57,210 nt of DNA from an uncultured Planctomycetia bacterium. Its GTDB lineage: Bacteria > Omnitrophota > Gorgyraeia > 2-02-FULL-51-18. This document shows positions 41,715-42,958 of this stretch, piece by piece. The position numbers and the translations under genes were made by a program. The notes below the pieces were generated by a model. The model was not told where the DNA came from and ran no database searches. It saw nothing but the letters and a program-made list of their open reading frames with translations. Within the stretch, counting starts at the first letter, position 1. Each line of letters starts with the position of its first letter. The stretch lies in contig CAZCDB010000001.1 of assembly GCA_964497635.1 (NCBI GenBank), forward strand, positions 1-57,210. Reading direction: 5' to 3'.

Positions 41715-41801
41715 GTGCCCGTAGCTTCCGCCTGATCGGAGATCAGGACGGATCCGTCCTCGCCCATAGGCGAGGCGGACAATTGATAAGGATTAGGGCA
41801 C
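41715..41801. repeat. Structured element E1: tRNA-Arg-like acceptor stem enclosing four-way-junction module M1
   Basis: GTGCCCGTAGCT (41715-41726) is identical to the first 12 nt of tRNA-Arg, and GGGCAC (41796-41801) can pair with it. Inside is closing stem TCCGC/GCGGA with hairpins CTGATC-GGA-GATCAG, GACGG-AT-CCGTC and CTCGCC-CATA-GGCGAG. Confidence 0.7.
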
Positions 41802-41821
41802 GACAATATTCAAATAGTCTT

Positions 41822-41895
41822 GTGCCCGTAGCTCAATTGGATAGAGCGCTTCCCTCCGAAGGAAGAGGTTGATGGTTCGACCCCATTCGGGCACA
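41822..41895 (+). tRNA. tRNA-Arg (anticodon CCG)
   Basis: Hand-folded cloverleaf: acceptor GTGCCCG/CGGGCAC, D arm GCTC-AATTGGATA-GAGC, anticodon arm CTTCC-CTCCGAA-GGAAG and T arm GATGG-TTCGACC-CCATT. No encoded CCA. Confidence 0.9.
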
Positions 41896-41905
41896 CGGTT
41901 TTAGC

Positions 41906-41934
41906 TTGGACCATCCTAGGTCTTTGGCTATAAT
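41906..41934 (+). promoter_or_regulatory. Near-consensus sigma70 promoter inside the tRNA island
   Basis: TTGGAC (41906-41911), 17-nt spacer, TATAAT (41929-41934). It would drive element E2 plus tRNA-Lys and downstream genes. Confidence 0.55.
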
Positions 41935-41957
41935 AACACCCTTTAGCATGCAAGGGC

Positions 41958-42101
41958 TTTTGCGCCGATAGCTCAGTTGGTAGAGGTCGCTAAGCCTCTG
42001 CTTAGCGACACTTCGCGCCGGCATTGATAGCCGGCTTGTCGCAGCTTCCGCCTGCTGCTTTTGCAGCAGGACGGACCCGTCCTCGTCTATGACGAGGCGG
42101 G
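41958..42101. repeat. Structured element E2: 28-nt copy of the tRNA-Lys 5' part, two perfect hairpins, and the second copy of module M1
   Basis: 41958-41985 is identical to 42143-42170 (leader TTTT, acceptor 5' strand and D arm). Hairpins GTCGCTAAG-CCTCTG-CTTAGCGAC (41986-42009) and GCCGGC-ATTGATA-GCCGGC (42017-42035). M1 copy at 42047-42101. Confidence 0.7.
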
Positions 42102-42146
42102 GACTCTAGACGTAGAACTAGGTTTTAGATTTAGGTAAAAGATTTT

Positions 42147-42219
<73 letters not shown>

Positions 42220-42220
42220 C

Positions 42221-42346
42221 AAATTTCGATTTTGAAGGCCCATCTGCTTCGTTGCGATGGCAAGTTGTTTGTGCGACGCTATTTCCATAGCGTCTCCGCA
42301 CAACTTGCCATCGCGCCTCGCATCTGAACCTTCAAAATCAAAATTT
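42221..42346. repeat. Structured element E3: ~126-nt long hairpin (family M2) directly 3' of tRNA-Lys
   Basis: Outer 18-bp stem AAATTTCGATTTTGAAGG / CCTTCAAAATCAAAATTT (1 mismatch). Perfect 15-bp inner stem GCGATGGCAAGTTGT / ACAACTTGCCATCGC. Apex GACGCT-ATTTCCAT-AGCGTC. The 31-nt core 42269-42299 is identical to 42853-42883. Confidence 0.75.
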
Positions 42347-42365
42347 GGAAATGACTAAGAAATAG

Positions 42366-42447
42366 GGGCGGATGGCGAAACTGGCAGACGCGTCAGCCTT
42401 AGGAGCTGATGGGGCAACCCTTGGAGGTTCGAGTCCTCTTCCGCCCA
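42366..42447 (+). tRNA. tRNA-Leu (anticodon UAG)
   Basis: Acceptor GGGCGGA/TCCGCCC, anticodon arm TCAGC-CTTAGGA-GCTGA, a long variable arm and T arm GGAGG-TTCGAGT-CCTCT. No encoded CCA. Confidence 0.9.
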
Positions 42448-42645
42448 TGATTTTAGTTGCCGAAGAGGACTCGAAGAGAGTTTCGTCGCCGTTGGTAAAA
42501 GTCGACTGTCCAGTGGACAGTCGACAATTCCTTCGACGAAACGAATGGCCGACCGGAGTCGAGCCGTCTAAGAGCGGAGCGACGTAGTCGCGTAGCGGGA
42601 AGTTTGGCGAGACGTAGGCGCCAAGTCCTCTTCCGCCCATGATTT
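42448..42645. repeat. Structured element E4: ~176-nt hairpin-rich insert ending in a 22-nt direct copy of the tRNA-Leu 3' end
   Basis: AGTCCTCTTCCGCCCATGATTT occurs at 42432-42453 (T arm, acceptor and 6 nt of trailer) and again at 42624-42645. Between them: an 11-bp perfect hairpin GTCGACTGTCC-AGT-GGACAGTCGAC (42501-42525), nested in TTTCGTCG/CGACGAAA, plus further hairpins at 42547-42565 and 42579-42591. Confidence 0.75.
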
Positions 42646-42727: not shown

Positions 42728-42803
42728 GCGGGAGTAACTCAGCGGCTAGAGTGCCACCTTGCCAAGGTGGACGTCGAGGGTTCGAATCCCTTCTCCCGCT
42801 CCA
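42728..42803 (+). tRNA. tRNA-Gly (anticodon GCC), with encoded CCA
   Basis: Acceptor GCGGGAG/CTCCCGC, D arm ACTC-AGCGGCTA-GAGT, anticodon arm CCACC-TTGCCAA-GGTGG, T arm GAGGG-TTCGAAT-CCCTT, then T-CCA. Confidence 0.9.
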
Positions 42804-42807
42804 TTTA

Positions 42808-42927
42808 TTTTTGTCGGAGCAGGCCCATCTACTTTGTTGCGGGCTCGTTCGCTTGTGCGACGCTATTTCCATAGCGTCTCCGCGCTCAGTCGCCCGCGTC
42901 GCGTATCTGGGCCTGCTGCGACAAAAA
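42808..42927. repeat. Structured element E5: ~120-nt long hairpin (family M2) directly 3' of tRNA-Gly
   Basis: Outer 20-bp stem TTTTTGTCGGAGCAGGCCCA / TGGGCCTGCTGCGACAAAAA (1 mismatch) and inner GCGGGC/GCCCGC. It has the same 31-nt apex core TTGTGCGACGCTATTTCCATAGCGTCTCCGC as E3. Confidence 0.75.
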
Positions 42928-42958
42928 TTAAAAAGAATTCTAAAAGGAAAGCTACTTA

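Follow-up and report, generated by a model that had tools for sequence, protein, structure and literature searches.

Double-hairpin repeats inside partial tRNA gene copies of Candidatus Omnitrophota and a small GIY-YIG nuclease gene found beside them

Two of the four tRNA genes clustered in a 57,210-nt stretch of DNA from an uncultured Planctomycetia bacterium (GenBank assembly GCA_964497635.1, contig CAZCDB010000001.1, positions 1 to 57,210; hereafter the window), placed in the Omnitrophota by GTDB, are preceded by an incomplete copy of their own 5' part, and within each of these pseudo-fragments lies a copy of a ~55-base palindromic double-hairpin repeat, here called the module. The locus raises the question of what these modules are and how they came to lie inside pieces of tRNA genes. 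We find that they belong to a repeat family present mainly in Candidatus Omnitrophota and conclude that they are probably selfish DNA of the repetitive extragenic palindromic (REP) or Ssn-repeat type, associated with tRNA genes and spreading with a cassette that encodes a GIY-YIG nuclease, with no RNA role evident. We are less confident of its mechanistic details than of the explanation as a whole.

The module family and its insertion into tRNA gene fragments

An earlier reading of this DNA from its letters alone (the sequence-only reading) had reported two homologous modules, together with a 12-nt repeat of tRNA-Arg and a 28-nt repeat of tRNA-Lys; the modules lie where it had placed them and both repeats are real (Table 1). 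Within the window an 18-nt core occurs twice without mismatch and, allowing up to three mismatches, yields four matches against 0.23 expected; a covariance-model search of the 57 kb found no third copy. The tetranucleotide AGCT stands immediately 5' of each module. Copy 1 is located between positions 13 and 14 of a decayed partial tRNA-Arg copy, and joining its flanks restores the tRNA-Arg sequence over the insertion point with no mismatch, indicating clean insertion into a partial duplicate and not, as the sequence-only reading had proposed, a tRNA-Arg paralogue whose interior was replaced. Copy 2 lies between positions 29 and 30 of a tRNA-Lys fragment spanning positions 1 to 35, which also contains a 56-nt insert belonging to a hairpin element other than the module family. 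A tRNA-like small RNA with a re-formed acceptor stem was considered for copy 1, as the GGGCAC that follows the module pairs with 41715-41720 in the lowest-energy fold; this candidate was rejected because L124 and L135, which are orthologous loci, lack the 3' complement (L numbers label related loci).

The search for further copies, which the sequence-only reading had named as its key test, used a structure-aware pattern scanned against one genome per species; metagenomes and viral contigs were also scanned. Apart from high-GC noise, the genome scan recovered at least about 20 loci, mostly from metagenome-assembled genomes labeled Candidatus Omnitrophota, a few among the matches listed being labeled "uncultured bacterium", Planctomycetia, or Staskawiczbacteria. 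Streptomyces and similar organisms accounted for about 100 of the 120 genome-scan matches listed, and these were discarded as high-GC chance matches, as were all four viral matches, which were high in GC, coding-like, and without hairpins or tRNAs. The metagenomes contributed 25 further loci, all of them true copies. After removal of duplicates the family comprises at least 39 distinct copies in Candidatus Omnitrophota genomes and metagenomes, with two in the 57 kb of the window and at least three on two contigs of one other genome assembly (L029, L057). The window organism itself was found again in three metagenome contigs (L157-L159) with 99.9-100% identity over the shared region. An Rfam check at gathering and E-value thresholds returned only the tRNAs, with P11 below threshold at 17-20 bits (the best score over a module being 20) against the 70 required, and no Rfam family matches the modules.

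Family members are GC-rich palindromes of 52-62 bp with the consensus TCCGCC-T[stem-loop-stem]A-GGACGGATCCGTCC-T[stem-loop-stem]A-GGCGGA. All copies share the conserved feet TCCG-CCT...AGG-A-CGGA for one half and TCCG-T-CCT...AGG-CGGA for the other, and the GACG|GATC|CGTC center is likewise conserved. Stems of 11-17 bp, each with one bulge, start with C-G pairs and close loops of 3-9 nt; the inner stems vary freely in sequence and their pairing is always kept.

To define the insertion sites, the 8 nt to the left and the 6 nt to the right of each module were joined and compared with tRNA. For 28 of the 39 copies the result was a contiguous tRNA stretch with no more than two mismatches; of 300 positions picked at random in these loci, 9 gave one. 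The modules are therefore clean insertions without target duplication or loss, and the tie to 5' tRNA fragments seen in the window extends to the family. Nearly all modules are housed in a 5' partial duplicate of a tRNA gene located 20-450 nt downstream, with recurrent insertion points at 8/9, 12/13, 17/18, and 29/30, and four loci hold two modules in a single fragment (L057, L087, L100, L131). AGCT abuts 9 of 14 independent sites where 8% is expected (P = 3e-7), which is a real junction preference. The sequence-only reading had noted AGCT at both window junctions and assigned it to the D stem; the first part stands, whereas the AGCT at copy 2 corresponds to tRNA-Lys positions 26-29 and not to the D stem. 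The joined flanks at L097 correspond to the T loop of a tRNA in antisense orientation, so the module is not restricted to sense-strand 5' fragments.

The lowest-energy fold of each window module is a pair of tandem hairpins, each with a one-base bulge (copy 1, -22.6 kcal/mol as DNA and -35.6 as RNA, z = -5.8 and -5.2; copy 2, -26.0 and -41.2 kcal/mol, z = -9.5 and -9.0). With DNA parameters both strands give this double hairpin, with RNA parameters the + strand does, and it accounts for 60-76% of the ensemble, with z = -5 to -9.5 across both copies. The sequence-only reading had proposed a four-way junction, with a closing stem around three hairpins; this form is less stable by 8.3 (copy 1) and 10.7 (copy 2) kcal/mol, and its second hairpin, GACGG-NN-CCGTC, would need a 2-nt loop and instead forms the two basal stems of the favored fold.

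Covariation points the same way in a gap-free set of 34 distinct cores from which the loops had been trimmed. Of the cells, 98% are paired, in line with the earlier observation that the inner hairpins differ in sequence and stay paired, and double-change cells number 159 against 46 in shuffles, a value reached in none of 500 shuffles; sliding the partners drops pairing to 30-50%. The suggestion that compensatory changes reflect selection on a fold is thus borne out. The inner stems are common to both structures and do not discriminate between them. Pair 24-46, specific to the double hairpin, is U-A in 28 cores and C-G in 6, and pair 2-22, likewise specific, is C-G in 33 and U-A in 1, whereas the helices specific to the four-way junction show one-sided changes only and no compensatory change. 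RNAalifold on the model-based alignment arrived independently at the double hairpin, with 14 of 20 pairs compensated. Branch migration can convert one form into the other, and the junction may therefore exist as a minor state or bound to protein.

The loops have no base conserved across copies, the two bulges being the only conserved unpaired positions. G.U (G.T) pairs and A.C mismatches are about equally rare, so that the strands show no asymmetry; as it offered too few cases and showed no bias, this comparison was set aside as a test of RNA-level selection. Pairing or DNA palindromy, and not sequence, appears to be what is selected. The similar scarcity of G.T and A.C and the unconserved loops agree better with a selected DNA palindrome than with a selected RNA.

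The modules also turn over. The orthologous tRNA-Lys locus from another organism, L100, has a pseudo-fragment and a 56-nt insert that are 100% identical to those of the window and spacers that are only ~55% identical. It carries an extra module between positions 5 and 6, and in the module that it shares with the window both inner hairpins differ while the feet are unchanged and the neighboring 90 nt identical. Across the family, hairpin halves are found in many combinations, a TGCTGC stem occurring with five different partners.

Table 1. Features of the tRNA cluster and its modules in the window
Feature	Position	Strand	Evidence or remark
5' pseudo-fragment of tRNA-Arg(CCG), first 12 nt, ending in D-stem AGCT	41715..41726	+	= 41822-41833
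Module copy 1, double-hairpin element	41727..41779	+	covariance-model match, 53.7 bits
Copy 1 half 1, TCCGCC-TGATCGGAGATCA-GGACGGA	41727-41752	+	
Copy 1 half 2, TCCGTCC-TCGCCCATAGGCGA-GGCGGA	41753-41779	+	
Decayed continuation of tRNA-Arg pseudo-fragment, CAATTGATAAGG (roughly positions 14-25), then GGGCAC at 41796-41801	41780..41801	+	sequence reading
Promoter-like site TTGATA-16-AATATT, between module 1 and tRNA-Arg	41783..41810	+	9/12 consensus positions
Intact tRNA-Arg(CCG)	41822..41896	+	ARAGORN; Rfam RF00005, 66.5 bits
Promoter-like site TGGACC-16-TATAAT, upstream of tRNA-Lys pseudo-fragment	41907..41934	+	10/12 consensus positions
First part of tRNA-Lys(CTT) pseudo-fragment, 4-nt leader + positions 1-24	41958..41985	+	identical to 42143-42170 (28 nt)
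56-nt two-hairpin insert between pseudo-positions 24 and 25	41986..42041	+	fold -29.8 kcal/mol, z = -4.0
CAGCT, tRNA-Lys positions 25-29 of pseudo-fragment, including junction AGCT	42042..42046	+	compare intact gene 42171-42175
Module copy 2	42047..42101	+	covariance-model match, 70.7 bits
Copy 2 half 1	42047-42075	+	
Copy 2 half 2, C...G variant of outermost pair	42076-42101	+	
GACTCT, tRNA-Lys positions 30-35, pseudo-fragment end in anticodon loop	42102..42107	+	matches intact gene 42176-42181; same junction in L100
Intact tRNA-Lys(CTT)	42147..42220	+	ARAGORN; Rfam, 74 bits
tRNA-Leu-TAG	42366-42447		
tRNA-Gly-GCC	42728-42803		

The GIY-YIG gene and the surroundings of the tRNA genes

In eight related loci (L016, L025, L036, L087, L112, L131, L139, L152) a module is adjoined by an open reading frame (ORF) for a GIY-YIG protein (PF01541, E down to 8e-16), which in all of them, L025/L139 forming one case, lies between the module-bearing fragment and the intact tRNA gene (Asn or Asp). 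The products in these related loci are 78-82 aa long and have PF01541 as their sole domain. The repeat that flanks the ORF consists of leader plus 5' tRNA sequence and occurs at tRNA-Asn, Asp, Met, and Leu in Omnitrophota and Patescibacteria, with up to ~20 nt of leader included at the tRNA-Asn loci. A hairpin stands on the 5' side of the ORF in L016, L025/L139, L112, L036, L131, L162, L166, and L169, and L087 and L152 have a module-ORF-module layout. Roughly 30 of the 39 module copies are without an adjacent nuclease gene.

The same hairpin-ORF layout recurs with other hairpins of the CCGCC...GGCGG type in Patescibacteria and another Omnitrophica genome, at tRNA-Leu and tRNA-Met, and in L146 at tRNA-Leu. 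The nuclease family is large: of 8,000 candidates scored in a profile search, more than 5,600 proteins reached E <= 1e-6, and Patescibacteria and Omnitrophica supplied many of them. The genomic context of six family members was checked (P0003, P0008, P0049, P0055, P0088, and P0121, where P numbers label proteins of the nuclease family). Five of the six contexts, at tRNA-Asn (L152), tRNA-Leu-TAG (L146), tRNA-Met (L162), and tRNA-Leu-CAA (L166, L169), begin with a tRNA 5' piece and a hairpin element, after which a handful of further tRNA bases, the ORF, and the intact tRNA follow. The hairpin is the standard module in L152 and elsewhere another GC-rich hairpin, mostly with CCGCC...GGCGG feet; the sixth context, an Ignavibacteria locus (L167/L168), is arranged differently.

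Positions invariant among 14 aligned proteins include Y6, Y17, G19, R28, H32, and E64, which, from knowledge of the fold, we take to be the GIY-YIG catalytic residues. The closest solved relatives are the UPF0213 proteins EF2693 (E = 2e-6) and BH0048 (E = 1e-5), and no NCBIfam family matched the nuclease.

Other elements keep company with these cassettes. In L036 (4310-4530) and L112 (2965-3185) a group I intron (RF00028, 63.6 and 51.8 bits) occupies the anticodon loop of a tRNA-Asn gene, the same gene that the GIY-YIG cassette precedes. L146 has a gene of the 23S_rRNA_IVP family (PF05635; 1884-2243) right after the GIY-YIG ORF and tRNA-Leu, an arrangement that recurs in six metagenome contigs. 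Two GIY-YIG ORFs (1201-1449 and 1554-1928) flank a single tRNA-Met gene in L162, an Omnitrophica genome.

The window is a chromosomal stretch of a Gram-negative-type bacterium encoding, among others, AsmA, MscL, a rhodanese, PTS-Ntr EIIA, HPr, and PtsP, and the four tRNA genes identified by ARAGORN and Rfam lie between the rhodanese gene and ptsN. Where a near-consensus promoter had been proposed upstream of copy 2, a promoter-like site is present. Upstream of tRNA-Arg, the -35 box of the promoter-like site overlaps the pseudo D-loop of the tRNA-Arg fragment, and L124 and L135 have, by eye, comparable hexamers at the matching position. In all three loci the remnant D-loop (CAATTGG/A...) makes a plausible -35 box with a -10-like hexamer 16-17 nt away, and the pseudo-fragment may now supply the tRNA-Arg promoter.

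Repeats are also found on the 3' side of the tRNA genes. Imperfect palindromes of ~130 nt directly follow tRNA-Lys (42221-42350) and tRNA-Gly (42804-42935) and share an identical 31-nt core (42269-42299 = 42853-42883); with a similar element 3' of tRNA-Asp in L016, they seem to form a second repeat family associated with tRNAs. The 3' end of tRNA-Leu is repeated over 22 nt (42432-42453 and 42624-42645), the copy lying 170 nt downstream of the gene beyond hairpin-rich filler. Partial 3' tRNA duplications follow many tRNAs in the related loci and are never combined with a module.

Explanations for the spread of the modules

The explanation that we favor would treat each module as a head-to-head dimer of two REP-like hairpins with interchangeable inner stems, and the partial tRNA duplicates as the footprint of a small cassette invading the 5' part of a tRNA gene. 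A complete cassette would comprise the old tRNA 5' piece with its hairpin, the ~80-aa GIY-YIG gene, and a fresh leader and 5' part fused to the remaining tRNA; since the cassette would supply the latter, the tRNA gene would stay intact and the old piece would be left behind. The window copies, having no nuclease gene, would be non-autonomous or relics. A precedent is provided by the Ssn proteins, single-domain GIY-YIG nucleases that bind and cut single-stranded DNA next to hairpin repeats (NTS/SRM) which flank the ssn gene and are scattered genome-wide, a layout that the authors liken to an insertion sequence (Chenal et al. 2025; PMC11893778); tRNA is not mentioned in that paper. By analogy, the nuclease considered here may recognize folded hairpins in single-stranded DNA. 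The cassette might then spread when the repair of a break in tRNA-like DNA copies or captures the element, and cutting near the dyad center followed by rejoining would account for the shuffled hairpin halves. As a tentative extension, it is possible that an Ssn-like GIY-YIG nuclease and a 55-bp double-hairpin repeat form a minimal mobile system targeting the single-stranded, cloverleaf-prone 5' half of highly transcribed tRNA genes, with footprint-free insertion 3' of AGCT and a replacement 5' segment that rescues the gene.

Several points weigh against this explanation. GIY-YIG enzymes hydrolyze DNA without being able to join strands, which would leave integration to host repair, and to our knowledge transposition chemistry has not been established even for Ssn. 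The GIY-YIG gene is absent from the 57-kb window. The SRM consensus, HGTCWYN(0-2)YYVSBRHN(0-5)WNVSBRGN(0-2)RNCYNB, matches none of the 39 modules with their flanks and has no match in the window; the module reads CGTC-C-T where the consensus needs CGTC-W-Y. A single presence/absence polymorphism was found. An empty tRNA site without a pseudo-fragment was not recovered through rhodanese homologues (L157-L161), because L157-L159 are the same organism as the window and L160 and L161 are without the tRNA cluster. Confinement to tRNA pseudo-fragments could reflect a filter on survival instead of a choice of target. Finally, the 56-nt insert (41986-42041; L100 184-240) is perfectly conserved despite diverged spacers; it may be constrained or recently transferred, and the favored model leaves its conservation unexplained.

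Movement by a different enzyme could also account for repeats of this kind. The module could be an independent element resembling a REP or a MITE (miniature inverted-repeat transposable element), moved for instance by a Y1 transposase of the RAYT/IS200 type, with its proximity to the GIY-YIG gene coincidental and both occupying pseudo-fragments. Insertion 3' of AGCT on either strand without target duplication resembles the rule followed by IS200/IS605 elements, which insert 3' of a fixed tetranucleotide without duplication, and both the many copies lacking a nuclease gene and the module that L100 gained on its own are in accord with such autonomy. However, the GIY-YIG gene is found together with hairpins that have the module's feet in several phyla and beside several tRNAs, and no Y1 transposase was noticed beside any copy, no systematic search having been made. 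Ssn ties such a nuclease to such a repeat (PMC11893778), CGTC-type REPs are without a known transposase (PMC3733652), and we consider a separate transposase unlikely. Alternatively, the arrangement might be the scar of integrase-mediated insertion or excision at tRNA genes, or a simple tandem duplication, with the hairpins serving as terminators, insulators, or protein-binding sites. The tRNA-Lys pseudo-fragment does end at position 35, within the anticodon loop, where crossover classically takes place, and partial 3' tRNA duplications are common in these loci. Yet the part duplicated here is the 5' one, no integrase is encoded in the eight ORFs scanned (37.8-46.8 kb), and the "inserts" measure only 40-185 nt; the sequence-only reading was right to find the arrangement unexplained by classical att scars. 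The module has no T tract, no terminator-like site was called at either copy, and a site bound as double-stranded DNA would not require inner stems that vary in sequence and always pair. We regard this alternative as highly improbable.

The same locus can be read at the RNA level, the module being a functional structured RNA in the leader of a tRNA precursor, released by RNase P and acting as a small RNA, as an insulator of processing or folding, or as a 5' stabilizer of the nuclease mRNA. The promoter-like site upstream of the copy 2 pseudo-fragment would allow its transcription; the L089 module, 19 nt from tRNA-Thr and downstream of a good promoter, must be transcribed; and in the ORF cassettes the transcript of the ORF would have the hairpins at its 5' end. 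Covariation is strong, and the RNA folds have very high predicted stability (z = -5 to -9). Position relative to promoters is inconsistent, however, the module lying upstream of the probable -35 box at tRNA-Arg and in the leader at tRNA-Thr, and L097 places one in an antisense T-loop context. The near-perfect two-fold palindrome folds equally well on both strands, and the lack of strand asymmetry (G.U about as rare as A.C), of conserved unpaired nucleotides besides the two bulges, and of an Rfam match also speaks against an RNA. The discrete processed small RNA suggested by the sequence-only reading is not supported on these points, and we judge an RNA function of any of these kinds to be quite improbable.

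Relation to known repeats and nucleases

How REP-type palindromic repeats multiply is poorly understood, especially for the CGTC class, which is without a known transposase. The loci described here offer exact, footprint-free insertion sites with a target preference and one natural presence/absence polymorphism, and show an invasion of tRNA genes from the 5' side in two uncultured groups of bacteria with small cells. The resulting 5' pseudo-fragments are liable to be misread by annotators and in searches for integrative elements. If the tentatively proposed minimal mobile system is real, the loci would constitute the first natural insertion-site record of how CGTC-type REP or Ssn repeats spread, and an unreported class of homing cassette that duplicates the 5' part of tRNA genes and is common to Omnitrophota and Patescibacteria. 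The arrangement is not described in the literature that we consulted on GIY-YIG proteins with tRNA genes and mobile elements, on YhbQ/UPF0213, and on Omnitrophota repeats.

Integrase att scars differ in duplicating the 3' part of a tRNA gene, whereas here it is the 5' part. The IS200/IS605 elements, like the module, have hairpins at their ends, insert 3' of a fixed tetranucleotide with no duplication of the target, and have single-stranded DNA as a likely substrate; the module differs in being ~55 bp long and two-fold symmetric, and no Y1/HUH transposase was noticed beside its copies, again in the absence of a systematic search. Two adjacent GC-rich hairpins with conserved structure and suspected mobility, near or in structural RNA genes, also characterize the double-hairpin elements and GC clusters of fungal mitochondria (Paquin and Lang, as cited in PMC10085805 and PMC2800124). 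The likeness is one of description only; the elements are organellar and eukaryotic, and they are not described as targeting tRNA 5' fragments. In Allomyces atp6 such elements reportedly occur with free-standing endonuclease ORFs and duplication of a host-gene fragment.

Among free-standing homing endonucleases, SegB of phage T4 (PMC2988022) resembles the cassette in that a GIY-YIG gene lies beside tRNA genes with hairpins upstream of the ORF. More generally, such enzymes are encoded beside their target gene with duplicated target sequence, here leader plus tRNA 5' part, and are expected to spread by break repair that co-converts flanking gene sequence. In contrast, Seg and I-Tev enzymes have a separate DNA-binding domain, the nuclease found here consisting of the catalytic domain alone (~80 aa), and SegB leaves no module-bearing 5' pseudo-fragments.

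The Neisseria repeats belong to a CGTC-tagged class of REPs, mostly head-to-head dimers, with no known transposase (Di Nocera et al. 2013; PMC3733652). Like the module, with its GACG-GATC-CGTC center and a hairpin in each half, they are short GC-rich imperfect palindromes found mainly as head-to-head dimers, some of them heterodimers whose units differ in stem and loop, and a dimer can fold as two hairpins or as one larger structure. They differ from it in having stems of 8-9 bp that start with A-T pairs, loops of 4-5 nt, and usually a spacer of 20-100 bp (PMC3733652), and in lying between ORFs and not in tRNA fragments.

The Ssn system is also set apart by its repeats, the module being a zero-spacer head-to-head dimer with bulged 12-17-bp stems inside tRNA 5' pseudo-fragments. 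The Ssn repeats, also named SRM/NTS or dRS3, nonetheless have a CGTC-type head beside the stem, as the module does. In both systems a small single-domain GIY-YIG nuclease (80-94 aa for Ssn, 78-82 aa for the cassette proteins) is encoded by a gene flanked on one or both sides by GC-rich hairpin repeats, which for Ssn measure 20-50 nt and also occur elsewhere in the genome, and both show the repeat-gene-repeat layout. The tRNA loci of Omnitrophota and Patescibacteria supply a candidate enzyme gene in the same cassette as the repeat.

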